Shown here piece by piece: positions 11,901 through 43,389 of a DNA stretch of 64,000 nucleotides (the first letter of the stretch is position 1; every line of letters starts with the position of its first letter). The stretch lies in the NCBI GenBank assembly GCA_964373715.1, contig CAYJVR010000005.1, positions 46,805 through 110,804 of the forward strand, read 5' to 3'. Under the pieces are notes generated by a model. That model was not told the origin of the DNA and ran no database searches. It was given only the letters and a program-made list of their open reading frames with translations. The DNA comes from an uncultured Planctomycetia bacterium (lineage in GTDB: Bacteria; Omnitrophota; Gorgyraeia; 1-14-0-20-64-10). The translations under genes and the position numbers were made by a program.

Positions 11901-14900
11901 CACATGGTCCACCACTTCCCACAGATTTTGAACATAGGCCTTTCGCTCCGCATCCAGCTTCGGATCGCCGCGAAACTGGCTCATCTGAACGCCCAACAAG
12001 GAAAGAGAATATAGGACAGACTCAAAACCCTTTGTTGTTGCCACGGAAGACTCCGGACCGGACTTCACATCAATCACCCCGGCGCTTTCTTTCGAAAGCC
12101 GGCCCATATCCGACCCGGTCTTGCCGGTGACGGACATCATCGACACCCCTTCACTGGAAAACCGGTTGAAAAGTTTGACCGTGGAGGCGGTGCTCCCGGA
12201 CCAGCTCATTCCGACTGCCAAATCAGTCTTCGGATTGAGCTTGATCCCCCGGTTCTGAATATCGACCGGGTCGTAGACAAGTATCTCCACGCCCGGTAAA
12301 AGCTCCCGGAACAACTGCTCGGCCACCATGGCATCCCGCCAGGAGCTTCCCACACCGATCAAGAAGATCCTTCTTAAGTTCTCTAATTTCTGCCCAAAAC
12401 GGTCTCTCAAATAACCCGCGTTCAACGTCGGGATGTTGACCGAAACCGGCTGGCCCTGCTGATTGAAAGCCATGTACGAAACGGCTTGATCCAGAAGGAT
12501 CTTCGGAATCTCATCTATGTGCATCTCCATAAAGGTCCGATAGATTCCCTTGACCCCAAGTTCTGGAGAAACTGTCTCTTCTACCTTCTTCGCCTCCTTC
12601 GTCAATTCCTTTTCGGTCAGCGGAGAGCCGTCGAGGTGGGTGACGTCCACATTCAGGCGGGCAGCGCCCTGCTCATCCAGCCGCCGGGTCACCCGGGCAA
12701 ATTTGTTCAGCTCTTTAAGATGGTAAACATCCACCTTGTATTGTTTTCGGATCGGATCCGCCCTCTGCTCATATTCCCGCAGCGCATGGGTGACCTCCTG
12801 GGCATACTGCTGCGCATTGATCCCTCCTTGGCTGGGAGGTAACTGGCGAAGCTCCCGCAAATGCTCCAGGGTTTTCAACAACTGCTGCTGCATCTCGGAC
12901 AGTTTCCTCGCCGCCTCAGCCACCTCCGGCGCAGGGAAAAGGGCTATCCCGGCCGCATAGTCCGACGTCACAAGAATCCGTTCACCGACCATCACGATAT
13001 CGACCGGCCGGTCATGGCTGACCACGTAAGTCATCAAGGGGCTGTGTAAACTTGTCGCATTCACCCCAAGCTCTGAACCGTCCTCCATCTCCAGGGTTGC
13101 TACACGGAAAGCCACTTCATCCGGATTGATCTCGCGTCGGCCCTGAGCGCGCAAATTCTCCACCACTCTGTTCCAGACCTGGGCCCTGTTGAACTCGTTG
13201 CGGTCCTGGTTTAACTGGCCAAGGAGATTGAGTTTCACCATCAGGCCATCCGCTTCTACCCGGCCGGCCGCCTTATCCATCTCAAACTGCTTCGCCACAT
13301 AGTCCCAATGGACCACAATCGTCCGGGTGTCCGTGACAATGCTGTAGCGGGCTTTTGTCCCAGTCGGTGTTGTCTCCTCTGCCCAGTAATACCCCTCGAA
13401 ATCTTTGAAATACTGCGCTTCCGGTCCCGACTGCTGGAACGCTTCCATATGTTCCTTCCTCAAGGCGCTGTTGATCGTCCCCTTGACCTGGCCGTTGTGG
13501 ACAACGACCCTGCTCTTCGTGTTGTGGGGATGTGCATTCCATCGGCTCGGGTCGCCGGTCATCGCCCAACGGCCGTGCCCGACCACCATCTCTCCCAGGA
13601 GCCGTACCGTGAACTCGGTGACCGCCCCAAGGCTGTAACCCCGGCGATAAGTCCCCCGCTGCGGCTGGGTGGGATTGGAAACCCCTGTATCCACCTGCTG
13701 CTGACGGATCTGGAGAATCCTCTGGTAGACCTTATCCGGCAGGAGGGGAGCCTGGATCACTTGACCGTTCTCGACGATATCCACCTTCTGGGTATGGGCC
13801 CAGTCATGAAACCAGTCGACCAAAGCGGCAAAGGCATGCCCGGGCATATTCAGGTTCCGTTCACGCTTCCAGAAGTCAAACCAATTCTTCCCGCGACCCG
13901 GTACCCGCTCTTCAAACCGCCGCTTCACCTCGGACAACCACTCCGGATGAGCCTGAAACAGGCCGATCAAGCCCCCCTGCATTCGGAAAACATGGCGGGT
14001 CGGATCCACATTGTAATCGGGTGGAACCACAAGCCAGCGGCCCACAAGAAAGTCCATCACCTCATCCCATCGTTCATGCTCCTTTGGCGTCAGCTGCCCG
14101 GAGAGCGCCCGACTGGAGAGGAGGTCATAAACTCGCATGATCTCCTGTGTCTTACCGGGAATCAAACCTTTAGCTTCCTGGAGAGCGTGGGAGAGTTCTG
14201 CCCGGAGAAACAACTGGACAAATTCGGGTGTCAAATCAAACAGACGGCCGATTTCCCGAACAAGATCCGGAAGGTCGTTATGCCGAATCAAGACCTGATC
14301 GCCGGCCCAGACACCGCCGACTCGCCCGACTTGAACGCTGGCTCGTCCTTCAAAAAGATCTCCGAGTGTCGTCCTTGTCAGATCGTAAAGAGGCCAGCGG
14401 CCTGTTCCAATTTGTTCTGAAGTGGGCACGAATTCCATCAGCCCCTCTTCACTCAAAAGCTTAAAACCTTGTAGACGCGCCTCGTGAACCGCCGAAGGCA
14501 GTAGCCACTCTCTTTCTCGGCGCCGCGCTTCTGACCAAGCCCCGGCTGCCTCCTGCCGGTACTGTTCCTTCTGCTGGGGAGAAATCCCTTGTTGACGCGA
14601 ACGGGCCCAGACCAGGCGGCCTCTGTTGATGCTCTCCTGTATTTGCTGTAGCAGATCATGCTGTGGTTGATAGGGGTTTCCTGACATCGTCTTATCGGCA
14701 TGGGGAAATGTCTCTGGGTAGATCGGATAATTGTAAAGATACTGAATCAGAGTACCCGGCTCACCATCTCCCTGCCCCTGGATGTCCATGCCCGCCTTCA
14801 CCACGCGCGGTCCCTCCTCCGTCCACACCAACAAACCGGTGTTGTCCGGAGCCCGGTACTTGAGGCGCAATACCGCGTCCAGAATTGCGCGAATCCCTCC

Positions 14901-16019
14901 ATACTGGCCGAAAACGGAGTTGACGCCGCAGCATCCGACGATCTGTTCCAACGCCTCGGCATCGGCCAAACGGGCCCGGCCCGGAAGGATCTTCGCCAAC
15001 GCCGAATCGTTCAGCGAGGTCCACACCAGCGCGGTCTGGACCGGCTGATTGCTCCGGACAAACTCGCTGATGCTGAACGTCCTGTTGTCCTCTCCGACAA
15101 AAGAGATTTCCGTAGGGGTCGCGTTGACGGAAAAAACACGATCCCGGTCAAGAAGGGAGATCCGCCCGGTGCCGTCAATCGCCAGCGTGACAAAGTGAGG
15201 ATGCGCTTCGTTATCAATGTTCCGCTCCACAGCCACGGTCACCGCCTGCACCTTCCCCTGGTTCTGCCGGATCAGATCAATCGCCTGACGGAAGACAGCC
15301 GCCCCGGTGTCGCTGAAAACAACTCCCTGAGAAGCGCCGCCTCGCGCCGCTCCCATCGAAGCGATCTCATTCAAGTCTAATTGCGCCGATCCGTCCGGAC
15401 CGAGCGGCCGGACCGAGCCGGTGTGAACCGCGTGGCGGGCCGCCATGTACGATTGATCAAAAACCAACCCCGCCGGATCCATCGCAAGAGATGATCCCTG
15501 GTGGTTCCGGGTCACGTACGCGGCGCAGGAAACGCATTGCGGATCCCCCATATCGGCGCCGGCAACGGCCTGCTGAACCGCCGGGTTACCCGGCGCTAAA
15601 AGGGCCGCCATGATCTGGTCCCACATCTTGGTGTTCGAGACCTCTTTGCCGTATTTTGAAAAAAGCAATTCCAACCGGCGGACCGCCTCCGCCTCATTAT
15701 CCAAAGGAGACTGAGGATTCCAGCCGGGCATGGTTTCAGACCAGATCGGATCGGCCGAAAAACGGCCGACAACATTCTTCAAGCTGCCAGTTCCGGTAAA
15801 GGGAGCGGCTATCGTCCGTAACGCCTCTTCCAACCCGGCCAAAACACCGGGGGCTTCCGAAGTCTGGCCGGGGCGCAACGCCCACACCGGGGCAACCTGC
15901 GTCAGAACAACGGACAGCATGGTGACGAAAGCAAACGATTGACGATAACCGGAAAACTTATGAGACCGCATCGATTTAATTCTCCCTATTAAATGATTTA
16001 ACTTCTCGTTTGGACTCAT
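5943..16019 (-). CDS. Giant (3358 aa) multidomain protein. It carries a papain-like Cys/His candidate region near the N-terminus, a GlmS-like glutamine amidotransferase (type 2) module, tandem SIS domains, a third SIS-like domain, an ACT domain and a C-terminal beta-helix module I identify from memory as DUF4954-like
   Basis: ORF-track ORF. N-terminus has a signal-like segment (MRSHKFSGYRQSFAFVTMLSVVLTQVAPVWA). Class II GATase matches: GCCGVNSVFGQYGGIRAILDAVLRLKYRAPDNTGLLVW (about 14900-14930) and HGRWAMTGDPSRWNAHPH / VVVHNGQVKG (about 13480-13590). SIS motifs: WSGSTASTVKLF / VATTKGFESVLYSL (about 12050-12450), VLVIGSRNNPIYIEGELKAEEIAWLV (about 11700-11800) and VHIIGGGQAYEAAKELARVLSMLGIFAEA (about 9980-10060). 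ACT-like segment: AIATWDRSGLLRDIGTVVSNAGLSIEDIV (about 9140-9260). Nucleotides about 6600-8560 encode hexapeptide-repeat sequence that aligns end to end with the stand-alone 663-aa protein at 34525..36516 (GAIVESSVIQWGSSVES ... GFHHQALLIAA ... GYGANVGSNHTGKEPDQEI ... VKRNEGKY). Confidence 0.85.
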   Translation of the reverse strand: MSPNEKLNHLIGRIKSMRSHKFSGYRQSFAFVTMLSVVLTQVAPVWALRPGQTSEAPGVLAGLEEALRTIAAPFTGTGSLKNVVGRFSADPIWSETMPGWNPQSPLDNEAEAVRRLELLFSKYGKEVSNTKMWDQIMAALLAPGNPAVQQAVAGADMGDPQCVSCAAYVTRNHQGSSLAMDPAGLVFDQSYMAARHAVHTGSVRPLGPDGSAQLDLNEIASMGAARGGASQGVVFSDTGAAVFRQAIDLIRQNQGKVQAVTVAVERNIDNEAHPHFVTLAIDGTGRISLLDRDRVFSVNATPTEISFVGEDNRTFSISEFVRSNQPVQTALVWTSLNDSALAKILPGRARLADAEALEQIVGCCGVNSVFGQYGGIRAILDAVLRLKYRAPDNTGLLVWTEEGPRVVKAGMDIQGQGDGEPGTLIQYLYNYPIYPETFPHADKTMSGNPYQPQHDLLQQIQESINRGRLVWARSRQQGISPQQKEQYRQEAAGAWSEARRREREWLLPSAVHEARLQGFKLLSEEGLMEFVPTSEQIGTGRWPLYDLTRTTLGDLFEGRASVQVGRVGGVWAGDQVLIRHNDLPDLVREIGRLFDLTPEFVQLFLRAELSHALQEAKGLIPGKTQEIMRVYDLLSSRALSGQLTPKEHERWDEVMDFLVGRWLVVPPDYNVDPTRHVFRMQGGLIGLFQAHPEWLSEVKRRFEERVPGRGKNWFDFWKRERNLNMPGHAFAALVDWFHDWAHTQKVDIVENGQVIQAPLLPDKVYQRILQIRQQQVDTGVSNPTQPQRGTYRRGYSLGAVTEFTVRLLGEMVVGHGRWAMTGDPSRWNAHPHNTKSRVVVHNGQVKGTINSALRKEHMEAFQQSGPEAQYFKDFEGYYWAEETTPTGTKARYSIVTDTRTIVVHWDYVAKQFEMDKAAGRVEADGLMVKLNLLGQLNQDRNEFNRAQVWNRVVENLRAQGRREINPDEVAFRVATLEMEDGSELGVNATSLHSPLMTYVVSHDRPVDIVMVGERILVTSDYAAGIALFPAPEVAEAARKLSEMQQQLLKTLEHLRELRQLPPSQGGINAQQYAQEVTHALREYEQRADPIRKQYKVDVYHLKELNKFARVTRRLDEQGAARLNVDVTHLDGSPLTEKELTKEAKKVEETVSPELGVKGIYRTFMEMHIDEIPKILLDQAVSYMAFNQQGQPVSVNIPTLNAGYLRDRFGQKLENLRRIFLIGVGSSWRDAMVAEQLFRELLPGVEILVYDPVDIQNRGIKLNPKTDLAVGMSWSGSTASTVKLFNRFSSEGVSMMSVTGKTGSDMGRLSKESAGVIDVKSGPESSVATTKGFESVLYSLSLLGVQMSQFRGDPKLDAERKAYVQNLWEVVDHVYGLIVEPGKEDRNRVLDTREDVESLVNRVARAWKDRQKVLVIGSRNNPIYIEGELKAEEIAWLVGKAADIGDESWRNLLLRTADPKVPEAERVATIFNMTDPGRLDEFIRAIDEVTQAGIQVVVQTFAEDNRHLARLIQLQEQGKIDLVIVPRVRLTLQGLVDAPLYFRFSLALARAHGITDSQIDNSRNLAKSVVVSGARSREELIQASAARYVTTQEQAGQVEGSQASFRNYQRGLARAWPALQTPRQQSISRLPLLLNMALERWTGPEGVLVHPEDKTRAGQLLQRFSKAAGAPEPRARVVIVTDEEATQYAAGAAVGPFGWTEPVVSGVRSELYTKGVRVRIGGWYYRASYNSAEKRYTIRYAPDLNPYAQGKEPETKEVSVTQAVQTVSFNGREYIVDPSSFLPDPKEPEKLLSGLQLKATQPELLLSGIENIKVFRSTDRGIEDLVDEGTVVFLISRGRNRGPANAQLPQVAFPFKLRTGAEVPRQQDERSEERMISLAQRLRDRGVPLVTISDDVSGLRDSKFNPTRVAHLSLEADVDDVSVYPLTYLALLTVGARMGELLGRNTADFQNSLRTVPAMVAEVLADRVSAKRLEDLLRKLSQYRKVHIIGGGQAYEAAKELARVLSMLGIFAEAQLNDSAWHGPLAAVDPNKKKYSENTDDPAYRLKYGVNPKYPLDNDTLVLFVMTDSDFADSTNTDAQVYDSRNGRFLLVTLNDNVQKPGPGQTNLIRRSIIEAGPVKLAPITEEQVNNPELQDPEGIFAVPNATDALGNFNVAAFGAILAERFGHFRDEALEEGPQEPVSTFRPGPGPAIPPTGLIQVPADFLGERLRGAAFRQLPEGALGDLFEMGLGVFETNQPQVRMYPDSRNPQHAVIAIATWDRSGLLRDIGTVVSNAGLSIEDIVSDNYPQEPIEGRMRVAYELLDMRESVQRLQELGVADAIRTALAVPPVEAGVHTQFGSRLSDEEVEGIIEAYQGYSVLQSVPGQARVQTVVTEFPGDPQRSKMYVVADVRPAPGQLVQDVLTALQMEGTVGFAEAFQLNNQAPRVVLAVADVNTPMATLHQKGLDQEIKDRFQAGLEEKYDVVKAIKEAIAGSPFLQAVQQVVSGQWQSAVPPVQLSAAQISQMESQGNSAEDWSRVRVVPSTDLTKIRDNRFFGDVEIWSIGTGTAEVKPGVNLPLGIYDSTVINSRIGSNPLIYGNSVVSNQVVKENVIIVNGDVTASGKPTSFGLGTKIAVGPETVGVKGAGRIIRPFADMLLDAAARLATSGVNEGLLAKYNGVEPAQIPAADRDAVVRSREHQALQADYNAAHAQYVAAAASPVGIVEKGARIVNSRDVSNVYVGEGAQIIGAAAVRDTTILSSNTEQTKITDGAIVESSVIQWGSSVESAAQVRESVLLEHSHAERGGFVTGSVLGPNTGVAEGEVTAALVGPFVGFHHQALLIAAVWPEGKGNIGYGANVGSNHTGKEPDQEILPGEGTFFGLSVDIKYPSNFSGSPYLLIATSVKTLPQTVAFPFALINTPGETLPGLAPAFNEIVPAWVLMDNLFAVKRNEGKYISRNKATRHQFDFRVFRQDTVDLMKDARARLQAVQGKPAPVSGYYLDTPQTWTPEGENQQPVTAPGIPGLGKNYMKTDADAVQLAIDAYSRFILHYALRGVYDRVDALAKAGQLAQVANLLTQASPDPAWEHQRQTLAQERPGITLRDALAEFVKLEEQAAKDIESSKAKDDFRGRKIIPDYAEIHPPAEQNAFVQDTWANFRGAPAQGGKPAIEGIQPRVIGPNGLVPQLQQAGLESITVLVPTEIFTPVLSTVAARTNISGSNVPTGLELMLERVSLPSADTASLSVGVMAGTLDGVKGLAIGAALSRVKTTDGQLLPVAFVVDTVQEKAKLIEMGFSENSIFRIGDTAANTPNRDSAIAAADFYLKQVYGVGQVEDVGVNRSVSGTLEQILLALFRIQLLPESLALWESFVDRATLALQA

Positions 16020-18089: not shown

Positions 18090-20537
18090 TTACGACAAAG
18101 AAGAAACGGCCGCCTTGCCGGTCCCGCCCTGAGAAGGGTGCTTGGAGTTAGATCCAATCTTTCCTAAAACCGCCTCCACCCGGTGAACCCGACCGTCCTC
18201 ATGGGGAGGAATCAAGTTGCCTTTCAAAACCTTGCCGTCCACGATCAACTGCTTGACGCCGTGAGAAACCCCGTCCGGGTTCTTAATCGTGATCTCGTAA
18301 ACAGAGCCCCGGAAAGGCCGGCGGATCTTCGCCTCTTTCCAGCTTTTCGGGATGCAGGGGTCCACCAAAAGCCCATGAAAATCGCGCCTGGCCCCTAAGA
18401 TCCACTCGGTGGCCCCCACGTACATCCAGGGGGTGGTTCCGGTGTTCCAGGTAAAAGCCCCCTCCCCGAACCGGTCGGCCGAACCGGGCCCGATGATGTA
18501 CTCCGCCCAGACGTACGGCTCCACCTTGTACTTGTCGTGATCCTCCTTGGCCTTCGAAATCGGCAAAAGCTTCGAGAAGGTGTCGTACGCGCTCTCCGCC
18601 CGTTTGATCGTGCAGTCGGCAACCACCTTAAACGCGCAGGCATGGGAGAAAACCGCCGCGTTCTCCTTGGTGCCCGGACAGAAAGAGGTGACGCGCCCGA
18701 TCCCCGGGTTGTACTCGGTGTAGCTGGGCAGGAACAGGGCCGGCCCGTAAGGAGTATCGAGATAGTTATCGATCTTATCCAGGATGCTGGAGAGCCTCTC
18801 CGGAGGGACAACCCCGCTCAAAATCGCCCAGGTCTGGGAGTTAAGCGGCACCTTGCCCTCTTTATTCTCCTGGGAACCGATCCGGCGGCCGTCGTCGTTG
18901 AAAGCGGCCAGGTACCAGGCGCCGTCCCATCCAATCTCATTGATGATCTTGGTCAACTCATCCGCTTTGGAGTGCATCTCATGCGCCACCGCGGTGTCCC
19001 CCAGGAACTCCGCTAATTCCTTCATATGCTTGCAGGCGCGCACTAGGGCCATCCCCAGCCAGACCGACTCTCCCTGGCCCTTGATGCCGACATGATCGTA
19101 GGCATCATTCCAATCGGCGTGGCCGATCAGCGGCAGGCCGTGCTGGCCGCGGGCGTGATAGATGTACCGGACGGCGCGCAGCGCGTGCTCGTAAACGGAG
19201 GCCTCCCCCTTGTCATGGAACGGGATCACCTTGTTCAGGAACTCGGTATCGCCCGTCTCTTTGACGTAGGCGACAATGCTGTACGGCAGCCAGACCGCCA
19301 CGTCAGCCTTTTTGATGACGCCGCCTACTCCCTGGTTCTCCCATGTCCCTTCCACTTCGGAAAAACCGGAAACGGCATGACCGCTCTCATACTGGTAGAA
19401 AACAAGCCTTTCCAGCTTCGCCCGGGCGGTGTTCAGATCAGCGCTGAGCAAACCCTCCACATCCTGCGCCGTATCCCTGTACCCCTGGCCCCCCTCCGCC
19501 CCGTGGTAATGGGAGGTCCCGCGCCAATGGGTGATCGCGTAAAGCTGGTATTTGCCCCACAGGTTGACCATGAGGTTCATCTTGGGATCCGGAGTCTCGA
19601 TCCAGACCTGCTCGAGCTGGTGTTTCCAATAAGCCTTGATCCCCTCGATCTCCTCCTTGCAGGTCTCCACCGATTTGAACCGTTTGACCAGGGTCGGCAC
19701 ATCGTTGCGGTTATCGGTGATGCCGGAGATAACCACAAATTCCTTCGTCTCTCCGGGATTGAGCGCCACGGTGCTCTGCAGGACAGCCACCATATCCTCG
19801 CCGCGGACCGTATGGTTCGAAAGTTTCTTGGCCTTCAGCCCCGCCGGATCGCTGATATCGCCGTACTGGCCGATAAACGCCTCCCTGCGGCATTCGTAGC
19901 TGTCCACCTTCAAGCTGGAGGAGAGGAAGCCGTACCCCGGCTTGTGCCAGGTCTTGAACGGCTGCTTGAAGGCGACAACCGTCTGCAGGTTTTTGTCGTA
20001 AAAAGAATCGTTGTAGAGGCAGAGGATGTTCCGGTAATGGGTCTCCAGGGCCACATCGCCGCAGACCAGCTCGACAAACGGGTAGACCTGGAGCCTCTTC
20101 CTGGCCTTCGAAGCGTTCGTGAGGGAGACGAGCCAGATCTCGACCGGAGTGTCCTTCGCCACGAAATAGGTCACCGAGCCCTTCACGCCGTTGGCGGAAG
20201 CGGATATCTTCGTGTAGCCGAAACCGTGCCGGCACTCCCACTGGTCCAGTTTCTGCCGGCTGGGCTGCCAGTTGAGGCTCCAAACCTTTTCCTTCCCGCC
20301 GGATTTCCGGGCAGGCTCTTTGATGAAAAGATAGCGGCCGGACCGGTCGTTGCTCAGGTGGTCCCACCGGTGGAGCCGGTAATACTTCGGGTCTCTTAAG
20401 TAAGAAAAACCTCCCCCCGTCTGAGAGATGAGGCAGTGGTAGATGTCGTTAAAGAGGTAATTAAACCAGGGACGCGGCGTATTCGGGTTGGTGACGATGA
20501 ATTCCCGCCCGTCTTTGCTAAAGTGTCCGTATTTCAT
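18090..20537 (-). CDS. Glycoside hydrolase family 94 disaccharide phosphorylase (cellobiose or N,N'-diacetylchitobiose phosphorylase; context favours chitobiose)
   Basis: 815 aa. N-terminus MKYGHFSKDGREFIVTNPNTPRPWFNYL and the catalytic-region motif HGLPLIGHADWNDAYDHVG are characteristic of GH94 (compare the Cellvibrio CBP motif HGLPLIGRADWND). The size fits the family. Confidence 0.9.
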   Translation of the reverse strand: MKYGHFSKDGREFIVTNPNTPRPWFNYLFNDIYHCLISQTGGGFSYLRDPKYYRLHRWDHLSNDRSGRYLFIKEPARKSGGKEKVWSLNWQPSRQKLDQWECRHGFGYTKISASANGVKGSVTYFVAKDTPVEIWLVSLTNASKARKRLQVYPFVELVCGDVALETHYRNILCLYNDSFYDKNLQTVVAFKQPFKTWHKPGYGFLSSSLKVDSYECRREAFIGQYGDISDPAGLKAKKLSNHTVRGEDMVAVLQSTVALNPGETKEFVVISGITDNRNDVPTLVKRFKSVETCKEEIEGIKAYWKHQLEQVWIETPDPKMNLMVNLWGKYQLYAITHWRGTSHYHGAEGGQGYRDTAQDVEGLLSADLNTARAKLERLVFYQYESGHAVSGFSEVEGTWENQGVGGVIKKADVAVWLPYSIVAYVKETGDTEFLNKVIPFHDKGEASVYEHALRAVRYIYHARGQHGLPLIGHADWNDAYDHVGIKGQGESVWLGMALVRACKHMKELAEFLGDTAVAHEMHSKADELTKIINEIGWDGAWYLAAFNDDGRRIGSQENKEGKVPLNSQTWAILSGVVPPERLSSILDKIDNYLDTPYGPALFLPSYTEYNPGIGRVTSFCPGTKENAAVFSHACAFKVVADCTIKRAESAYDTFSKLLPISKAKEDHDKYKVEPYVWAEYIIGPGSADRFGEGAFTWNTGTTPWMYVGATEWILGARRDFHGLLVDPCIPKSWKEAKIRRPFRGSVYEITIKNPDGVSHGVKQLIVDGKVLKGNLIPPHEDGRVHRVEAVLGKIGSNSKHPSQGGTGKAAVSSLS

Positions 20538-20592
20538 CTTTTTCCTTGTTTGTTTTTTGTTTTACGCGTGTGATATCTGGCGGCGGGTTTAT

Positions 20593-21798
20593 TTATAAAC
20601 CGGCGAAAACGTCGCGGATAACCAACGAGGCGGCTCCCACGGCGACGCAGTTCTCACCGAGGCGGGCCGGCACGATCTTCACGGCGTTAGCCATCTCTTC
20701 AAAAGAATACATGCGGATCATCTTCTTGACCGCTTCAATCAGAGCAGGGCCGGCAGCCTCAACACCGCCGCCGATGACGACCGCACCCGGGTTCAAGAGG
20801 TTGATCAGGAAAGCGATCCTGACCCCAAGCCGCTCACCGGCCTTCTGGATGACATCCAAAGCCAGCTTATCGCCGTCCTTCCCGGCCTGAATAACAGTTT
20901 CCAGGGTAATCGCTTCAGGTTTCCCTTTGGAGACATCCGACAATTTCGAAACGGCCCCGGCCTTGATCATCTCTCTGGCCTCATCCGGAATCCCGAGATG
21001 CGAAGCCCATGGCTTTAACGCGGAGATATTGCCGATCCAGACATCGGTTACATCAGCCTGCTCCTTGATCGACACCTCGCCGGCAGTGCCGCTGCTGCCG
21101 TGGTAAATCTCCCCGTTGATGATCATGCCGCACCCGACGCCGGAAAACATAAAAAGCATGATGTCCACATCGGTACCGGCACCGAGCGACCATTCGCCGT
21201 AGGCGGCGGTCGTCACGTCATGGTCCAGCTTGACCGGTATTTTGAACTGCTCCTGAAGAAGGGCCGTTATCGGCACGTAGATCGAGGCGACCCCTTCGGT
21301 GCAACGGATGGTGCCGACCTCCCGGTCAATCACTCCGGAGGCACCGATCTGGATGCCTCGCACCTTCTTCACATCGAGATTCGAGGACTTTACCACCTGC
21401 TCCACTTGGTCGATAATGGTTTTCACCACATTATCGGCCGTGTCGCGGGGCCGCAGCGCCTTGGACTGCGCGATGATGGCCCCTTCCAAATCGGAAAGGA
21501 CCGCCCTGATCGTAAACACTCCGAGATCCACCCCGATCACATAGGCCGATTTCGGGTTCAGGACAACGATCGTCGGCCTGCGGCCGCCGGAAGAGATGTC
21601 GAGCCCCTTCTCAATCACGATCCCCTGCTCGATGAAGTTGTTGACGTAGTTGGAAACCGTAACGATGTTCAGCTTGGTCAATTTGGAAATGTCGGTGCGG
21701 GAGATCGGGCCGTAGCGTTTGATCGCCTCCAAAATGGAAACGTTCTTCCGCTCCCGTTCAGTCAACGAATGCTCGTCTGTTTCAACGCCTCGAATCAA
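20593..21798 (-). CDS. ROK-family transcriptional regulator (NagC/Mlc-like: N-terminal HTH plus a ROK sugar-kinase-like domain)
   Basis: 401 aa. HTH region (ILEAIKRYGPISRTDISKLTKLNIVTVSNYVNNFIEQGIV) followed by a ROK fold with a Gly-rich region (VIGVDLG, GASGVID, GCGMIING). Lies directly upstream of the GH94 gene. Confidence 0.85.
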   Translation of the reverse strand: MIRGVETDEHSLTERERKNVSILEAIKRYGPISRTDISKLTKLNIVTVSNYVNNFIEQGIVIEKGLDISSGGRRPTIVVLNPKSAYVIGVDLGVFTIRAVLSDLEGAIIAQSKALRPRDTADNVVKTIIDQVEQVVKSSNLDVKKVRGIQIGASGVIDREVGTIRCTEGVASIYVPITALLQEQFKIPVKLDHDVTTAAYGEWSLGAGTDVDIMLFMFSGVGCGMIINGEIYHGSSGTAGEVSIKEQADVTDVWIGNISALKPWASHLGIPDEAREMIKAGAVSKLSDVSKGKPEAITLETVIQAGKDGDKLALDVIQKAGERLGVRIAFLINLLNPGAVVIGGGVEAAGPALIEAVKKMIRMYSFEEMANAVKIVPARLGENCVAVGAASLVIRDVFAGL

Positions 21799-21974
21799 GG
21801 AAGGACCCCTTCTTTTTCTTTATAACGCTTAGTGAATGGCAAGTGTGGTTCTTTTTACCTGGCTTTACAGGAGTTTTATCATCTCCTGCAAAAGCCCGCT
21901 TGTCAATCAAAAACCTGGCATAAATGCCTTCCGGTGTCATTGCGGGAAAACACAAAGGGCCGACGCGGCAATCT

Positions 21975-22075
21975 CGTCCTGAAACAAAGCGTTGGCCAGT
22001 TGGCCTGTTTGCGAGTTAGCCGGTTAAACGCGCTAACCCACTAACCCGCAAACTCGCTAACCGGCTAACACGGAT
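21975..22075 (-). promoter_or_regulatory. Promoter/operator region upstream of the ROK regulator. It holds a near-palindrome GGCCAGTTGGCC, a near-palindrome TTAGCCGGTTAA, and four to five direct repeats of (G)CTAACC spaced about 9 bp apart
   Basis: Read directly at 21985-22070: ...ttggccagttggcctgtttgcgagttagccggttaaacgcgctaacccactaacccgcaaactcgctaaccggctaacacgg. This is the 280-bp intergenic region 5' of the ROK gene. Confidence 0.4.
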
Positions 22076-22079
22076 GTCT

Positions 22080-23099
22080 TTACCCCCTCTTGAGCAATTC
22101 CTGATAGCACTCGCCTAAAGTCTTCCAAACCGTCTGCGGGTCCTCCGCCCGGATCGAGATGTACGCGGCCCCGTAGTAGCTCCAGGCGGCGAAATTGCGG
22201 ATCCCCGCCGAGTAGCCGGTCTCGATCGCAAGACGGATCTTCTCCTCTTCCCCGCTGGGAATATTGAAGTTGAGTATCCAGAGGTGCGGCTCCTTCCCGT
22301 ACTGGTCCGCCAATTTCTTGATCCGTTTGGCGAAGCGGTCCACAAACGGCCCGACATCGCTCTGGTGCGGCCTCCAGTACGGGTCCGTGCCTATGGACCA
22401 CAGTGTCGGGATCTGCGCTACTTTCTCCCAATCGTTTACCGTCGAGGAATTCTCAAAAGGAAGCAGGCAGACGGACGCCTTCAGCCCTTGCTGAACAGTC
22501 GCGTCGCAGAGAAAATGGGTCGTCTCCACCAGGCACTCTTCTTTAAATGACCTGACCTGAGGGGTCATCCGGTCCGGCATCGGTAGTCCATGCCTCTTTT
22601 TGAATTTCTCCCGGCAGAGCGAGCAGCGGCAGGCCCAGAGCTTGGGGATTTGGTCCTGCCCCTCCGGCTCCGGATAGATCATGAAATGGGGCTCATCCCA
22701 GAAAAGAACATCTGCCCCCAGTTTTTTGCAGGTCCGGATCCATTTCAGGAGGTAATCCCGGAAAACCGGATGGTTCGGGCAGGCTATGGCCAACGACTCC
22801 CCGAGGGAACTGATCTGTCTCAGCGAAAGATTTTTGGCCACAAGGCTGGAGTAGGTCTCCCCCCCAAAGACCTGCCCCACCGCCCAGGGATCCATCCAAA
22901 CTTCCAGGCCGAACTCATGGCACCCCTTGATGATCTCTGCGAAGGCCCCCTGGTAGAACTCCAGGTCCTCCTCGCTGAAGGTCAAAACGATGTAGTTGCA
23001 GCCGGCATCCCGGATGACCTTCAGATCCTCCCGGACCCGCCAGGGAATCCTGTTGCCATAATAGCTGATGCCGAGTTTCACCAGTGTGGGCATGGACAA
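22080..23099 (-). CDS. Hypothetical TIM-barrel protein (sugar-phosphate isomerase/epimerase-like or glycosidase-like), 339 aa
   Basis: ORF in the nag locus between the ROK gene and nagA. N-terminus LVKLGISYYG... with alternating beta/alpha character. I am not confident of the family. Confidence 0.6.
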   Translation of the reverse strand: MSMPTLVKLGISYYGNRIPWRVREDLKVIRDAGCNYIVLTFSEEDLEFYQGAFAEIIKGCHEFGLEVWMDPWAVGQVFGGETYSSLVAKNLSLRQISSLGESLAIACPNHPVFRDYLLKWIRTCKKLGADVLFWDEPHFMIYPEPEGQDQIPKLWACRCSLCREKFKKRHGLPMPDRMTPQVRSFKEECLVETTHFLCDATVQQGLKASVCLLPFENSSTVNDWEKVAQIPTLWSIGTDPYWRPHQSDVGPFVDRFAKRIKKLADQYGKEPHLWILNFNIPSGEEEKIRLAIETGYSAGIRNFAAWSYYGAAYISIRAEDPQTVWKTLGECYQELLKRG

Positions 23100-23132
23100 G
23101 TTTAATGTTTAAAGTTCAAAGTTTAATGTTGG

Positions 23133-24326
23133 TTAGAAACCGCAACGGACAGCCCCTTGCTTCCACGCGGTTTTTCCTCTGATGATGGTTTCCGTAACCT
23201 GGTACTTTGAGTCCCATAATACCAGATCGGCCAGTGCTCCGGGCGCCAGCCGGCCCCTGAACTTCTCAAGGCCAAGTGTGCGGGCGGGGTTCAGCGTCGC
23301 CATCCGGATCGCCTCCGGGAACGTGATCCCCATAAACCCGATCGCGCGGCGCAGCATCCCGTCAAGCAGCAGCGTGGTGCCGAAAAGACTGCCGCGTTCC
23401 GACCCTCCCTTGAGTTGCCAAGCGGAACCGTCCTTCGATTCATACTCGCGGCCGTCGTACGCATAGATGCCGTCCGGAAGCCCCGCGGCCGGCAGCGCGT
23501 CGGTGATCAACACCAGCGCCTCCGGCTTCAGCACGCGGCCGGTCCAGCGCAGCACCTCCGGGTGGACGTGTACGCCGTCGGTGATCAGCTGCACCGTCAC
23601 CCCGTGATCGGTCAGCACAGCGCCGAGAGCGCCCGGCTCCCGGTGATGGAGCCCCCGCATCGCGTTGTACAGATGGGTGACATGGCGGATCCCCTTCTTG
23701 AAACCGGCCTTCGCCTCATCGAACGTGGCGTCGGTATGCCCGAGCGATCCGACCGCGCCCGCGTCTTCGAGCACCGGCAGCAAATCGAGCGCGCCGGGCA
23801 ACTCCGGCGCCATCGTGAACATACGGAACGCCCCCTTGCCGAGCCCGAGCAGGTCCGACAGGTTCTTCCGATCGGGCAACCAGATCCGATCATGCCGGAT
23901 CAGCCCCGCGCGGGCGGGGTTCACGTACGGCCCCTCGACGTGGAGGCCCAGTATCTCGGCCCCTTCGGCGCCGCGGCCGTTGCAGAGCTCCGCGGCGATT
24001 TCGAGGTGGCGGTTCTGCTTCAATTCCCGGCAGACGACCGATGTGGCGAGAAACGAGGTGGTGCCGTGCGCGGCGAGCGTCCGGGAGACCGCCTGCACCG
24101 CTTCAGGGGTCCCTTCCATCAGGTCCCGCCCTCCGGCCCCGTGGATGTGGAGGTCAATCATGCCGGGCGTGATCCATCCGGAAACGGTTTCAGAAGGATC
24201 TTTCGGATCTTGGTCTGCGCGGCCGGCCTCCCCCGCGTAAAAGATCATGTCTCCGTCGATACCGACGGCGCCGTCCTCGATGACCTGCTCCGGCGTGACA
24301 ACCTTACCGAGAAACCACCTCTTCAT
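23133..24326 (-). CDS. nagA: N-acetylglucosamine-6-phosphate deacetylase
   Basis: 397 aa. Amidohydrolase motifs DLHIHGAGG, GHTDATF, HLYNAM and ITDAL. Typical NagA length. Confidence 0.9.
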   Translation of the reverse strand: MKRWFLGKVVTPEQVIEDGAVGIDGDMIFYAGEAGRADQDPKDPSETVSGWITPGMIDLHIHGAGGRDLMEGTPEAVQAVSRTLAAHGTTSFLATSVVCRELKQNRHLEIAAELCNGRGAEGAEILGLHVEGPYVNPARAGLIRHDRIWLPDRKNLSDLLGLGKGAFRMFTMAPELPGALDLLPVLEDAGAVGSLGHTDATFDEAKAGFKKGIRHVTHLYNAMRGLHHREPGALGAVLTDHGVTVQLITDGVHVHPEVLRWTGRVLKPEALVLITDALPAAGLPDGIYAYDGREYESKDGSAWQLKGGSERGSLFGTTLLLDGMLRRAIGFMGITFPEAIRMATLNPARTLGLEKFRGRLAPGALADLVLWDSKYQVTETIIRGKTAWKQGAVRCGF

Positions 24327-24708: not shown

Positions 24709-26001
24709 TCAGCCGACGGTGGAACCGCGGGTGAGCCCCTCGATGATGTAGCGCTGGAAGCAGAGGAAAACAACAATGACAGGAAGGGAGGTGATCGCCG
24801 AGCCGGCCATCAGATGGACCCAATCCACGCCGTGAAGCGACTTGTAGAGGGCCAAGCCGACCGGCAGCGTGCGCATCTCGACCGTGTTGGTCAGAAGGAA
24901 CGGGTAAAGGAATGTGTTCCAGGAACCCATGAAGGTGTTGATCCCGACAACGGCCAAAGCCGGCTGGGAGAGCGGGACGATCACGCGCGTGAAAATCTGG
25001 AATTCGGAAGCCCCGTCAATCCGGGCCGCCTCCTCAACCGCCAAAGGCAACTTGGAGATGTACTGCCGCATGAGGAAGATGTTAAACGGGGCCACCAGGT
25101 TCGGCACAATCAGCGCCCAGTAGGTGTTCAGCCACCCCAGGTGCTTCATCAGGATGAAGACCGGCACCATCAGCACCTGCGGCGGGATCGCGATCGAACC
25201 GACAATCATGAAGAACATCAGCTTCTTGAACGGAAAGTTCCGGCGGGCGAAAGCATATCCCACCATCGTCGAGAAAAGAAGGTTGCCTAAGGTGACCGCC
25301 AGCGCTATGCCGAAAGAGTTGACGGAATACCGGCCGAACGGGCCGCTGACCAGCACATCCCAGTAGTTGTTCAGCGTCCATTTCCTGAAGACAAACCGGA
25401 TATCATCCAGATAGACCGTTCCGGCCCCCTCATTGAAGCTTAAGGCGAGCTCTTCCGCCTGCCGCTCCGGCAGGTTGGGACTGAGCATCGAGAGGTTGAA
25501 GGCCTTCATCGGGATCCGGACCGTCTCCCAGGAGGTCTTCAACCCGCCGCGCAGAAACCGCTGGATCCCAAGGCTGGCGCTGCGGCCCTTCACGTCCGCC
25601 AGCTCAAGCGTGAAATCCTCCCCGCCGATCTCCCCCTTGACCTTGAACTCAAGGTAAGAAAATTTCCGCATATCCTGCCCGACGCGTGTGACCCACCGGG
25701 CTGGGCCGTCCCCCTTCTCATAACGGATCACCATCCGGCGGTTCTGCCGCAAGACCGGCTCCGCCGGATAAAAAGAGATCTGCACCTTTGAGGTGCCCTC
25801 CGCGCTGACCATAATCGGGCCGCCGATGGAGTTCGTGCTCCCGATCTCAAAGTCAGCCACAAGCACCTCTTCAATCCGCTGGAACAGGGTCCCGGTCGGC
25901 TTCATCGAGGTGTAGAACATCAGGACCAGCGGCAGCAAGGTCAAGACGAGCATCACCGTGAGAATACTGATCGCCACGCTAATCGCCAGCCGCTCACGCA
26001 T
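24709..26001 (-). CDS. CUT1-family carbohydrate ABC transporter permease (MalG/UgpE-like) with a roughly 170-aa periplasmic insertion that carries the carbohydrate-binding-like module
   Basis: 430 aa. TM1, then an insert (about 25390-25900) containing LEFKVKGEIGGEDFTLELAD ... SWETVRIPMKAFN ... LALSFNEGAGTVYLDDIRF, which matches the module of the 40596-45684 paralog array. Then a typical permease core with an EAA-like loop (AVEEAARIDGASEFQIF). Confidence 0.85.
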   Translation of the reverse strand: MRERLAISVAISILTVMLVLTLLPLVLMFYTSMKPTGTLFQRIEEVLVADFEIGSTNSIGGPIMVSAEGTSKVQISFYPAEPVLRQNRRMVIRYEKGDGPARWVTRVGQDMRKFSYLEFKVKGEIGGEDFTLELADVKGRSASLGIQRFLRGGLKTSWETVRIPMKAFNLSMLSPNLPERQAEELALSFNEGAGTVYLDDIRFVFRKWTLNNYWDVLVSGPFGRYSVNSFGIALAVTLGNLLFSTMVGYAFARRNFPFKKLMFFMIVGSIAIPPQVLMVPVFILMKHLGWLNTYWALIVPNLVAPFNIFLMRQYISKLPLAVEEAARIDGASEFQIFTRVIVPLSQPALAVVGINTFMGSWNTFLYPFLLTNTVEMRTLPVGLALYKSLHGVDWVHLMAGSAITSLPVIVVFLCFQRYIIEGLTRGSTVG

Positions 26002-26025: not shown

Positions 26026-28284
26026 TCAGGCCGGCTCCTCGTATTTGAACAGGCGCATCTGGACCCACGAGAAACACATCGTGATCATAAACAACAGATA
26101 CCCAACCGCCGCCGCCTGCCCCATGTCGAAACGCTGGAACCCGGCCTGATACAGGTACCAGACAACCGTCGTGGTCGCCCCCAGAGGACCGCCCCGGGTC
26201 ATGGCGAAAATCTCCGGGAAAACCTGAAAGGTATGGATCGTGTTGATCACCACGGCCAGCAGAACAATCGGCCGCAGCTGGGGCAGCGTGATGTGGCGGA
26301 ACTTTTGCCATTCGTTGGCCCCGTCAATCGAGGCCGCCTCGTACAACTCGACCGGGATCGTCTGCAGGCCGGCCAGGAACAAAACCATGTAGTAGCCGAA
26401 ACTCGCCCAGATGTTCATAATCATGATCGCCGGCAACGCCCACTTCGTGTTCAAGAGCCAACTTGGGTTCGGAACCGGCAGGTGGAACATTTGCAGAAAC
26501 TTGTTGATCAAGCCGTCCGGCGCGTAGAGGTAAGTAAAGATCGTCGCGATGACGATCACGGACGTAGCCACCGGAAGGAACATGCCTGCCTGGTAAAGCT
26601 GTTTGAACGGCACCTTGACATTGATCAGCACCGCCGCGAAGAGGGCCAGCATCATCGTGAATGGTATCGTGCCGACAGCGAAAAGGATCGTATTCCCGAG
26701 GGCCTGAAGGAAGGCCGGGTCTCGGATTACATACCAGAAATTACCGAGCCCCACGAAAGCCATTTCGGAGCTCAGAAGGTTATACCGGGAGAAACTCAGC
26801 ACGAAGGAATGAAGCAGAGGGATCAGGTTAAACCCGAAGAAGGTGATCAGCCACGGCGCCAAAAAGGTAAGGTCGATCGCGGTGTTGTACAAACTCAAGC
26901 TCTTCCGCTTGACCATCCCGACCTTACGCCGGCGGATGATGGCGTAGGCGACAAACACCCCGGCCAACCCCAAGAGGAAACAGCCGAACACCACGACATC
27001 GCTGATCCGCCCCTCCATCTTCTGCTCCTGGAGCAGAGGGGTAATCTCGGCCGAGGCCTTCTTGAGCATTGCCTCCGGATCCCTATCGTTTAAGATCACC
27101 TCTTCAATCGCCCGCGTAATCTTCTCCTGGATCTGGGTCCAGTTCGGATGGGCGGGCGGAGCTACCGCGTAGCGAAGCTGCTCGAACATCATCCGGTGTT
27201 CTGGGTGGCTCCTGTAATAAGGATGTTCCATCGCTGCCTTGACCGTTGGAACGATGTTCCGCTGGGCCTCCACGATGGACATCGCCTGCTCCTCCTGTAT
27301 AAGGAAGAGCGAAAGCTTTAAGGCGGCCTCCGGATACTTTGACCCCTTGAGCACCACGATCATCTCCCCGCCGGCAAACGACGCCGGGGTGCCGCGTGCG
27401 GCGGAGGGTTTCGGCAGGAGGCCGACGCCGTAGTTCAAGGTGGGGTTCATCCGCGGAATCAGCGCGAAATTCCAGGAACCGGAGATTTGAATCCCCACCT
27501 TCCCTTCGGCAAAAAACTGGTTAACCTGTTCCTGATGGTGAACCAGCGAGTAAGGCTTTAACGAAGCGTAGAACTTGAGCGCCTCCACCATCGGCGGTTC
27601 ATCCAGAACGCATTTCGTCCATTCCGGATCGAGCACATTCGCCCCATTGCCCCAGGCAAACGGCAGGAACTCCTGCCAAGGGGAATACGGCTCACTCACA
27701 TGGATGCCGAACCCGTAAATATCGGGACCCAGAGCATCCACCGCCTTGGCGGCATTGAGCAACTCCTCCCATGTGGTGGGAGGCTTATCGGAGTCAAGGC
27801 CGGCCTGGGCAAAGAGATTCCTGTTGTAAAAAAAGAGCCGTGTCCCTGCCATCCAGGGAACACCGTAGATCCTGTCCTTGTAGGTGACCGGGTCCCACAA
27901 AAGGTACTGATCCTTAATCGGGGCCACCTGATCGGTAACGTCCCGCAGAACTCCGGAAGAGGCGAACTGAGGCACCATATCCGTGCCGAGTTCGGCCAAA
28001 TCCGGGGCGTTCCCGGCTGCGATCGAGGTGATCAGCTTGTCGAGCCCGAAATCCCAGGAAAGCTGCTGAAAACGGACCCTGATGCCGGGGTTCTGCCGCT
28101 CGAACTTGTCCAGCAGAGAGCGCATGAGTTCTTCGCCCACGGAAAATTCCCAAAAATCAATCGTCACTTCAGCGCTTGCAGGGGACAGGAGACAGGGGGC
28201 AAGGGGAAAGAGGAGGAAAAAGAAAACGACGGCTGCCGAAAGAAGAACGAAAAGCTTTTTCAAACCGTGAATTCGATCGGACAC
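26026..28284 (-). CDS. Fused carbohydrate ABC solute-binding protein (N-terminal, about 430 aa) and MalF/UgpA-like permease (C-terminal)
   Basis: 752 aa. Signal peptide, then an SBP domain (NAPDLAELGTDMVPQFASSG ... GGEMIVVLKGSKYPEAALKL), then six TM segments with an EAA motif (EAASIDGANEWQKFRHITLPQ). The frame is continuous. Confidence 0.85.
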   Translation of the reverse strand: MSDRIHGLKKLFVLLSAAVVFFFLLFPLAPCLLSPASAEVTIDFWEFSVGEELMRSLLDKFERQNPGIRVRFQQLSWDFGLDKLITSIAAGNAPDLAELGTDMVPQFASSGVLRDVTDQVAPIKDQYLLWDPVTYKDRIYGVPWMAGTRLFFYNRNLFAQAGLDSDKPPTTWEELLNAAKAVDALGPDIYGFGIHVSEPYSPWQEFLPFAWGNGANVLDPEWTKCVLDEPPMVEALKFYASLKPYSLVHHQEQVNQFFAEGKVGIQISGSWNFALIPRMNPTLNYGVGLLPKPSAARGTPASFAGGEMIVVLKGSKYPEAALKLSLFLIQEEQAMSIVEAQRNIVPTVKAAMEHPYYRSHPEHRMMFEQLRYAVAPPAHPNWTQIQEKITRAIEEVILNDRDPEAMLKKASAEITPLLQEQKMEGRISDVVVFGCFLLGLAGVFVAYAIIRRRKVGMVKRKSLSLYNTAIDLTFLAPWLITFFGFNLIPLLHSFVLSFSRYNLLSSEMAFVGLGNFWYVIRDPAFLQALGNTILFAVGTIPFTMMLALFAAVLINVKVPFKQLYQAGMFLPVATSVIVIATIFTYLYAPDGLINKFLQMFHLPVPNPSWLLNTKWALPAIMIMNIWASFGYYMVLFLAGLQTIPVELYEAASIDGANEWQKFRHITLPQLRPIVLLAVVINTIHTFQVFPEIFAMTRGGPLGATTTVVWYLYQAGFQRFDMGQAAAVGYLLFMITMCFSWVQMRLFKYEEPA

Positions 28285-38704: not shown

Positions 38705-39652
38705 TCATTCCCTCTTGACCATAATATCGCGGCGAATGACGAGGGGAACATCCCCCTTCGCCTCTTTGAAAAGCTTGCGTGCTTCGGCTAACGGCATATA
38801 CCGTGTAGGAAAGCCGTTGATCTCGACAATCCTGTCCTGCATAAGAAGACCCGCCTTCACGGAGGCCCCTTTCGGATCCTCCTCCTTCACCGTTAACCCC
38901 AAAGGCTCCATCGTGAGTTCCATGCCGGGCCATTTGGCCTTTTTATCCGATTTGGAAAGAAGGACTTTGCGCCCGATAGTCACCCTGACGGGAGAACCGG
39001 CAGGCCCCAGAAGAGTCTTTGCCAGCTCCTCAACCGTCATGAAAGAAAGCGAGTATCCCCAAGCGGTCACTAAAGAGTCGCCGACCGCTATGCCGGACCT
39101 GGCCGCCAACGAATTGGGCTTAACAGCCTGGACCTCCGGCCGGTCCACCTTGATTTGAACGGTGAGCCCCCAACGGTTCTGGAGCACCCCCACTGGATCA
39201 GGATAATCTTCGGCCGCTTGCGCCTTGCGCTTGAGATCGGCTAGCCGGTTCAGCGAATCTTCCGCGTTGAAAAAACCCGGCTGAATCTGCAGAGCGCGCC
39301 TGTAGAACATTTGGGCCGTCGTGAAATTCTTTTCCTCGATCGCCTGGTTGCCCATAAACAGATAATTGCGCTCCGGATCGTCGTAGAAAACCTCCTGGAT
39401 ATCTTTGCGGAGGATCGTCCATTCTCCCGCCTCAGTGCTGACAACGATCCGGTCATGATGTTCTTCGATCACCAACCCTTTCAAGTTCTCGCCGGACTTG
39501 TAATAGACCACGTCAGCATAAGAAGGACACGCGACAAAAGACATGAGCAAGAAAAACAATCCCGCAAGAAGAACGAACCGGTTCTTTCTTCCCTTGCCCC
39601 CCGCCCCCTGTCTCCCGTCTCTTCGCACGGATTCACTCATGCGGCACCTCAA
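38705..39652 (-). CDS. Secreted protein with two PDZ-like domains, 315 aa (probable start at MSESV...)
   Basis: Signal or TM segment FVLLAGLFFLLMSFVA. PDZ-like segments GLTVQIKVDRPEVQAVKPNSLAARSGIAVGDSLV and GLTVKEEDPKGASVKAGLLMQDRIVEINGFP. Confidence 0.6.
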   Translation of the reverse strand: MRCRMSESVRRDGRQGAGGKGRKNRFVLLAGLFFLLMSFVACPSYADVVYYKSGENLKGLVIEEHHDRIVVSTEAGEWTILRKDIQEVFYDDPERNYLFMGNQAIEEKNFTTAQMFYRRALQIQPGFFNAEDSLNRLADLKRKAQAAEDYPDPVGVLQNRWGLTVQIKVDRPEVQAVKPNSLAARSGIAVGDSLVTAWGYSLSFMTVEELAKTLLGPAGSPVRVTIGRKVLLSKSDKKAKWPGMELTMEPLGLTVKEEDPKGASVKAGLLMQDRIVEINGFPTRYMPLAEARKLFKEAKGDVPLVIRRDIMVKRE

Positions 39653-40599
39653 TCCTTGGCCAGTTTACGATAACTTTCGTAATGATGGATGGCTATCCCG
39701 CCGAAACTAGACTTGTGGCCGAAAGCAATGTTGACCTTCTTGATCTCCCGCGTCAAATCCGCATAGGTCTGCCCCCCGAACGTGACGTAGGCCGGGAAAA
39801 GCCCATCCTGGGTTTCCTGTCCAACGACAACCGTTTTGCCGGTCGCCTCCGCGTAATCAATCTCCTTCTGGACCAGTTGGATCGTTCCGTCGGGGCCTTC
39901 GGCAAAATTCCGGTAGGCAAGAACCGTCACGGAATCCACCATATCCAGCACGTGTTGGGAAGCCGCTTTAATCTGCCCATGCCAGAGAATACGGTAGTTC
40001 GGGTCGTCGTCAAACCAAAAAGGGATATCCGCGCCAAAATGCAGAGGCTTCGGATCAAGCTGCAGGAGTTCAGCTATTTTTGCGTTGAGATCAAGGAATC
40101 CGCCCAGAAGTTCGGCCGGCCTCTCATTCCAGGATTTTGACAGGAGGTAGACTTCGATATCGGTGTGGATGCCGTCGAAACGTTCCTGGGAGGAAACAGC
40201 GGCATTAAGCTGGCGGACCGATTCGACCCATTGCATGGGGATAGGATGGTAGCGGGTCATCCCCCATCGGGGATCACCCGCCAGCGCATAGACCATCAAA
40301 CCGGACGAATGGGCCTGGCGGTTGAAATCCCGATAGACCTGGTCCATGGGGGCCTTGAGGTTATAGGCCGCCATGTAGAGGGTATCAATACGGTGGACGC
40401 GGCAGAAATCAAGGAGCTGGGCCCGGGAGTCCGCTCTTACTAAAACAGCGGCATCCCAAACCCACATCGCACGGGAGGGCCCCTCCAGGACAGCCGGCGC
40501 AGAATTGACGGCGGCAGGGGGAAAAAGAACCGCCGCCGCGGCAACAACCCGCAGCAGGCCGAAAAACCAACTCCGCTGTCCCGTTTTAGAGATCGTCAC
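39649..40599 (-). CDS. Secreted glycoside-hydrolase-like TIM-barrel protein, 316 aa; homologous to the central domain of the 764-aa protein
   Basis: Signal peptide. Colinear similarity to 764-aa residues TWVWKYDP ... GGLAIHCYDSYRLL (here AMWVWDAA ... GGIAIHHYESYRKL). Confidence 0.65.
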   Translation of the reverse strand: MTISKTGQRSWFFGLLRVVAAAAVLFPPAAVNSAPAVLEGPSRAMWVWDAAVLVRADSRAQLLDFCRVHRIDTLYMAAYNLKAPMDQVYRDFNRQAHSSGLMVYALAGDPRWGMTRYHPIPMQWVESVRQLNAAVSSQERFDGIHTDIEVYLLSKSWNERPAELLGGFLDLNAKIAELLQLDPKPLHFGADIPFWFDDDPNYRILWHGQIKAASQHVLDMVDSVTVLAYRNFAEGPDGTIQLVQKEIDYAEATGKTVVVGQETQDGLFPAYVTFGGQTYADLTREIKKVNIAFGHKSSFGGIAIHHYESYRKLAKD

Positions 40600-43358: not shown

Positions 43359-43389
43359 CCCTCCTGCCCCCTGTCCCGCGTCTCTTGTC

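Follow-up and report, generated by a model that had tools for sequence, protein, structure and literature searches.

A CBM30/CBM11-type jelly-roll domain in the first periplasmic loop of a MalG-type sugar permease from Omnitrophota

The permease and the domain in its enlarged loop

The window analysed in this study is a whole stretch of 64,000 nucleotides from an uncultured Planctomycetia bacterium that GTDB places in the Omnitrophota (contig CAYJVR010000005.1 of assembly GCA_964373715.1, positions 46,805 to 110,804). It carries a gene for a 430-aa MalG-type permease of the carbohydrate uptake transporter-1 (CUT1) class of ATP-binding cassette (ABC) importers (24709..26001, minus strand). The first periplasmic loop of this permease contains a folded β-jelly-roll domain of the kind found in the carbohydrate-binding module (CBM) families CBM30 and CBM11, homologous to secreted paralogs in the same window. 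The open reading frame (ORF) matches BPD_transp_1 in Pfam (PF00528; aa 245-420, 67.7 bits, E 1.5e-18), and its model superposes on SugB, MalG and AlgM2. It shows the features of a CUT1 MalG-type subunit, namely BPD_transp_1, an EAA loop (~aa 322-341) and six transmembrane (TM) helices with the N-terminus inside. The string EEAARIDGASEF of the EAA loop is read directly from the sequence at aa 322-333. Pfam, AlphaFold2, NCBIfam and Foldseek delineate the conserved TM core, TM2-TM6, at aa 220-425 (24727..25344, minus strand). The top NCBIfam matches are UgpE, GlcU and MalG, each under its equivalog cut-off.

TM1 (aa 5-32; 25906..25989, minus strand) is supported by an AlphaFold2 helix at residues 2-32 and a hydropathy peak at 9-27, and its basic MRER start places the N-terminus in the cytoplasm. 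Hydropathy and charge locate TM2 near aa 230-250. The loop that follows it (aa 251-265) is assigned to the cytoplasm because it has four Lys or Arg residues and no Asp or Glu. Since MalG topology has the N-terminus inside, the long loop between TM1 and TM2 is the periplasmic loop P1 (aa 33-219; 25345..25905, minus strand), as hydropathy with the positive-inside rule, AlphaFold2 and the NCBIfam profile starts also indicate. P1 comprises ~190-200 aa here versus 35-45 aa in MalG or UgpE. The NCBIfam MalG, UgpE and GlcU profiles start matching the permease only at aa 218-225 (profile positions 58-84); therefore, ordinary relatives have at most ~84 residues ahead of TM2, versus ~224 here. The original prediction had placed an extra segment of ~170 aa between the two helices, at 25390..25900. 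This interval corresponds to aa 34-204, the peptides quoted from it are present, and the enlarged P1 bears the claim out.

Within P1, the jelly-roll occupies aa 45-205 (25387..25869, minus strand). CBM30 (PF21582) matches aa 112-203 with 34.9 bits, above the curated cut-off of 27 (E 1.9e-8). With 36 orthologs as input, AlphaFold2 models the whole protein with a mean predicted local distance difference test score (pLDDT) of 82, and aa 45-205 as an all-β domain of 11 strands with a pLDDT of ~90; thus, a disordered or non-β insert, the outcome that would have spoken against the original prediction, is excluded. The loop modelled by itself gives a pLDDT of 88 and a predicted TM-score (pTM) of 0.83. 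Foldseek relates the insert to CBM11 (6r31, E 6.8e-9) and CBM30 (2c24, E 2.4e-7), and a profile of the window modules matches CBM30 1wmx with E 2e-13 and CBM11 with E 3e-5. The β-sandwich is superposable on the solved members of both families. CAZy defines a CBM as a part of a carbohydrate-active enzyme, and the insert falls outside this definition, its host being an ABC permease with no catalytic domain.

The full-length model combines two parts that are separate in solved structures. It matches MalG, SugB and AlgM2 (chains of 264-293 residues) with E 6e-11 to 1e-8 and 28-30% identity over 220-240 columns, through the membrane part only (query TM-score, TMq, at most 0.43), and it matches CBM11 and CBM30 through the insert only (TMq ~0.30). 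In the Foldseek search against solved structures, no single chain spans both the permease core and the insert (best TMq 0.43). MalF chains superpose poorly on the model, with a root-mean-square deviation of 18-19 Å.

The secreted paralogs form an array of four proteins of 304, 211, 444 and 764 aa (40596..45684, minus strand), and the resemblance of the insert to them had been noticed from a short signature. BLASTP aligns the insert with the 764-aa protein (28% identity over 176 aa, E 3e-13) and the 211-aa protein (26% over 174 aa, E 1e-9). Each module of the 444-aa protein is matched too, with E 5e-9 and 3e-8, as is the 304-aa protein with E 6e-6. In addition, a hidden Markov model (HMM) built only from the permease inserts of other genomes detects each of the window's five secreted modules (E 9e-10 to 4e-29), at profile positions 10-171. 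Because the alignments cover ~175 aa and the HMM matches nearly as much, the resemblance extends over the whole domain, beyond the GE.GGE motif. Thirteen positions are common to all six sequences when aligned (K96, D110, G123, G126, E128, F130, D136, L150, G153, W158, P164, F189 and G194 in permease numbering). The original count of six modules in the array needs correction: the four proteins contain five, with two in the 444-aa protein, and the permease contributes the window's sixth copy.

The insert is retained across more than 100 orthologs, and nearly all of these are labelled Omnitrophota. A protein search with the permease returned 3349 relatives, and the best 120 of them (49-100% identity, 375-463 aa) all have the enlarged loop. 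Most of the best 120 have precomputed PF00528 and PF21582 matches, and all those with a source name are labelled Candidatus Omnitrophica or Omnitrophota. Public records call these proteins just 'carbohydrate ABC transporter permease'. A contig scan with the insert found five close relatives only, three labelled Omnitrophota and two uncultured Planctomycetia. The insert profile gave 1258 matches at E ≤1e-3 among 1.84 billion representative proteins. The permease membrane domain is present in 5 of the best 150, the others being secreted-type proteins that have 2-6 modules and reach 3881 aa. Within a large family of modules, the permease insert is therefore a minor branch.

Transporter partner, catabolic genes and secreted modules

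The neighbouring gene encodes a 752-aa partner (26026..28284, minus strand) in which a solute-binding protein (aa 41-431; SBP_bac_1, E 1e-44) is followed by an extra TM helix (aa 432-450) and a MalF-type permease within aa 432-752 (BPD_transp_1, E 2e-15). The adjacent MalF-type partner and family-1 solute-binding protein of a CUT1 system are thus both present, as one fused gene. In the MalF-type part, the loop equivalent to P2 has just 38 aa. The best PDB matches of the binding protein are an unnamed family-1 protein (5ci5) and Lin1841 (5ysb), and 6ffl is also among the matches. The insert-bearing permease adjoins such a fusion in all five contexts compared, which are the window and four divergent orthologous loci (L006/L007, L008/L009, L010 and L011); in the latter, the fusion gene encodes 742-769 aa and lies directly ahead of the permease gene. 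No LSGGQ signature of an ABC ATPase occurs in any window ORF of 60 aa or more, and the Walker-A pattern is matched just once, within a 95-aa Gly/Ala/Pro-rich ORF (2600..2884). Many CUT1 systems use a shared ATPase encoded elsewhere, and the cognate ATPase here is presumably likewise shared and encoded outside the window.

Catabolic neighbours at 18090..24326 (minus strand) comprise a GH94 disaccharide phosphorylase, a ROK/NagC-like regulator, a ~340-aa protein and NagA, and they recur at the orthologous transporters. The full set of genes recurring around the transporter is NagA, the ~340-aa protein, the ROK regulator, the GH94 phosphorylase, phosphoglucomutase, NagB and DUF4954. NagA exceeds the TIGR00221 cut-off, and the best match of the ROK regulator is NagC. 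GH94 (18090..20537, minus strand) scores 502 bits against cellobiose phosphorylase 3qde and 413 bits against chitobiose phosphorylase 1v7v, and it belongs to the disaccharide-phosphorylase size class. Because of this class, the transported substrate would be a β-linked disaccharide or short oligosaccharide of the gluco or N-acetylglucosamine (GlcNAc) type. The pointers to the sugar itself diverge: GH94 is nearer to cellobiose phosphorylase, yet NagA, NagB and a NagC-like gene are in the cluster. The ~340-aa protein (22080..23099, minus strand), located between NagA and the ROK regulator and present in two copies in L006, has no significant family match (AP_endonuc_2, E 0.007). Taken together, these genes define a conserved sugar-uptake cluster of Omnitrophota, a phylum without a cultured model.

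Between the transporter and the secreted array there are ~15 kb in the window and 2 kb in L008/L009, where the same trio of architectures is found (one module, two modules, and module plus CBM9). No module array lies within 10 kb of the transporter in L006/L007, L010 and L011, that is, in three of the five contexts. The original prediction had joined the array functionally to this transporter. A functional tie of this kind would rest on homology and partial synteny.

Some features of the array and its surroundings are recorded here in their own right. The 764-aa protein (43390..45684, minus strand) consists of a CBM30-like module, an uncharacterised domain and CBM9. A 316-aa protein (39649..40599, minus strand) is homologous to its aa 231-501 (30% identity over 290 aa, E 1e-34). 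The domain common to both has no Pfam match, and its sole hit, PDB 10yv ('putative GH97 from Cellulomonas fimi'), is weak (3.5e-5); it may be regarded as a candidate uncharacterised glycosidase domain. The TTG-started 304-aa ORF (40596..41510, minus strand) overlaps the upstream 211-aa gene by 110 nt. A likelier start is its internal ATG (M42, MNAQFVK...), which precedes a stretch resembling a signal peptide; a start there would abolish the overlap. Giant ORFs are present on the minus strand at 5943..16019 (3358 aa), 45815..53128 (2437 aa), 53085..56819 (1244 aa) and 56839..63963 (2374 aa), and the 2437-aa protein has about six internal repeats of ~95 aa ('WRPT ... YGQLVA.DP ... Y.TVA').

Possible roles of the loop domain

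To compare the inserts with their secreted relatives, 372 secreted-type modules and 118 permease inserts were aligned to one profile. At column 23, an aromatic residue is present in 77% of the secreted modules and in 0% of the inserts, which have Glu, Arg or Gln there. Column 57 is aromatic in 75% of the secreted modules versus 2% of the inserts, which have Pro, Glu or Asp. This column aligns with Tyr53 of CBM11, one of four tyrosines critical for carbohydrate binding (PMC9668296). Cleft positions were mapped by sequence alignment alone, and the mapping is restricted to Tyr53; that of Tyr22, Tyr129, Tyr152 and Asp99 was judged unreliable, as CBM11 aligned only from residue 33 and has an insertion at ~124-137. 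By this comparison the canonical sugar cleft appears partly degraded, and therefore any glycan binding by the insert is probably weak or altered.

The residues most conserved among the inserts make up two charged motifs specific to this family, Q-D-x-R-K-F and P-E-x-x-A-E. Q109-D-M-R-K-F114 (25660..25677, minus strand; profile columns 66-72) is near-invariant in the permease inserts and is not shared as such by the secreted modules: across the 36 orthologs, D110, R112 and F114 never vary, and K113 is conserved in at least 90%. The second permease-specific motif, P178-E-R-Q-A-E183 (25453..25470, minus strand; columns 132-140), has E179 and E183 each conserved in at least 90% of orthologs. D136 and P164 are also invariant among them. 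The near-invariant residues that are absent from secreted modules are Q109, R112 and K113 in the first motif and P178, E179, A182 and E183 in the second. Strand order and parity gave no consistent orientation of the conserved motifs relative to the membrane. In addition, short orthologs (375-398 aa; e.g. 10001..11149 of L008) are without ~aa 52-100. They keep the first strand and, of the profile, match only columns 67-163, so that columns 1-66, about the N-terminal 40% of the module, are gone, which would imply a reduced sandwich; the charged insert motifs are still present. Because the short orthologs keep columns 67-163 and these motifs, the conserved function seems to be located in the C-terminal 60% of the module and on its charged surface. 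A protein interface may account for this pattern no less well than a sugar cleft would.

These observations bear on what the domain does in the transporter. In the E. coli maltose system, both MalG P1 and MalF P2 can be cross-linked to the MalE N-lobe, MalG P1 throughout the cycle, and isolated MalF P2 binds MalE with a dissociation constant of 7-22 µM (PMC6906923). Because of these MalG P1 contacts, the lost aromatics, the insert-specific charged motifs, the short orthologs and the constant pairing with the fusion gene, we consider docking at least as likely as sugar capture and slightly favour it. Tentatively, then, the insert may serve as a platform that docks and positions the tethered binding protein and as a hand-over site for a β-linked di- or oligosaccharide. 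It would be a permanent accessory, on the periplasmic side, to an importer in which every extracytoplasmic part is tethered to the membrane, most likely located beside the docking site of the binding protein, with a role akin to that of the immunoglobulin-like P2 loop of E. coli MalF. R112, K113, E179 and E183 would be the likeliest working surface. The short P2-equivalent of the MalF-type part, next to an enlarged P1 on the MalG-type subunit, is counted for docking as well.

Several points weigh against a docking role. Where the domain sits with respect to the binding protein and the pore is a prediction. Column 60, which is aromatic in the secreted modules, is so in 95% of the inserts too (W101 here) and aligns with a Trp of CBM30, and D110 and D136 are common to inserts and secreted modules. 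Sugars are also typically bound by side chains of Arg, Lys, Glu and Gln, and the insert still exceeds the CBM30 threshold. Moreover, a tethered binding protein needs recruiting less than a soluble one does.

Some of these points count for a working CBM, which would capture or concentrate a β-glycan at the periplasmic mouth and pass substrate to the tethered binding protein or the pore. This is a serious possibility, if not one we would put at even chances. The Pfam score above threshold, the match of the module profile to 1wmx and more distantly to CBM11, the resemblance to sugar-bound CBM11, and the aromatic at column 60 with the shared Asp residues are all consistent with it, as are the sugar-utilisation context of GH94, NagA and NagB and the homologous secreted modules nearby (2 kb off in L008). 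The aromatics of columns 23 and 57, on the other hand, are gone in nearly all inserts, and the short orthologs dispense with the N-terminal part of the module. In addition, the binding protein already does the capturing, and since GH94 is of the disaccharide class, the imported substrate is probably short and would be a poor ligand for a cleft-type module. The original prediction that substrate is captured on the permease itself is thus partly supported: its CBM-like domain is real, and capture by that domain is a possibility weakened by the missing aromatics, the charged motifs and the short orthologs. Its strong form, in which the permease module is a functional glycan site and makes with the tethered binding protein a two-stage capture relay on one complex, seems to us less likely than not. 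If true, no earlier ABC importer would have had a carbohydrate-binding module built into it, and an ultra-small Omnitrophota cell would take β-glycan fragments straight from its secreted module-bearing proteins.

It is quite improbable that the insert acts as an adaptor, with the secreted module proteins or with peptidoglycan or another glycan of the envelope as its ligand, and so couples glycan harvesters to the importer or anchors the importer. The insert does belong to the module family of the array, whose architecture trio adjoins the transporter in L008/L009, and the cluster includes GlcNAc-related enzymes. The array is, however, not within 10 kb of the transporter in three of the five contexts, and the self-association of modules, like this explanation as a whole, is purely inferential. 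A chance or low-complexity resemblance, or an annotation or assembly artefact, has nothing counted for it and is ruled out by E values of 3e-13 to 4e-29 from independent profiles, a confident β-sandwich model and more than 100 orthologs on independent contigs.

Comparison with known systems

The components of this system are of known kinds: CUT1 permeases, CBM30/CBM11 modules, fusions of a binding protein to a membrane subunit, and permease loops bearing a folded periplasmic domain. What we did not find in solved structures or in the searchable literature is the combination of a CBM-fold domain with P1 of a MalG-type subunit. A literature search of incomplete coverage, which included a 2026 review of bacterial glycoside transporters, found no carbohydrate-binding module in an ABC permease loop. 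To our knowledge, type I ABC sugar importers are thought to get their substrate solely via a separate binding protein, and the MalF P2 loop is the one well-studied accessory periplasmic domain. The system described here pairs a second, unrelated solution, a CBM fold on the MalG-type subunit, with fusion of the binding protein to the MalF-type one. It offers a natural test of docking and substrate hand-over when all extracytoplasmic parts are tethered, and of whether a carbohydrate-binding fold was re-used for protein docking. Heterologous expression, binding assays and cryo-electron microscopy should be within reach for proteins of this size.

The closest structural relatives of the insert, CBM30 of C. 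thermocellum CelJ (1wmx, 2c24) and CBM11 of Lic26A-Cel5E (1v0a, 6r31), have the G-x-x-G-G-E-x-F, D, W-Q and I-P motifs in common with it. They are attached to secreted glycoside hydrolases and bind β-glucan chains, whereas the insert, known here by sequence and model, resides inside a membrane transporter loop and has no aromatic at the position aligned with Tyr53 of CBM11. Protein-binding use of the fold has a precedent in the complex I assembly factor NDUFAF1/CIA30, which has lost most of the carbohydrate tyrosines and uses the cleft to bind a loop of protein (PMC9668296). The factor is eukaryotic and soluble and has another function, and its likeness to the insert is one of fold only (13-16% identity).

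For the partner gene, OpuA and GlnPQ, which represent other importer families, are fusions of substrate-binding and transmembrane domains. A precedent for the gene here is the MalE-MalF fusion of Bdellovibrio bacteriovorus (6ffl domain), described in PMC6906923. In all three, the second membrane subunit is without a CBM-fold domain.

For the insert itself, a close counterpart is E. coli MalF P2 in MalFGK2-MalE, likewise a large folded domain on the periplasmic side, set into a loop of one membrane subunit of a type I ABC importer. In the MalFGK2 structures, P2 is the loop just ahead of the conserved TM core, and the insert, between TM1 and TM2 at aa 33-219, occupies the equivalent loop. MalF P2, however, belongs to the MalF subunit and is immunoglobulin-like, whereas the insert belongs to the MalG-type subunit and is a CBM30/CBM11 jelly-roll unrelated to it in sequence. 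Unlike MalF P2, the insert also has secreted paralogs in the same genome.
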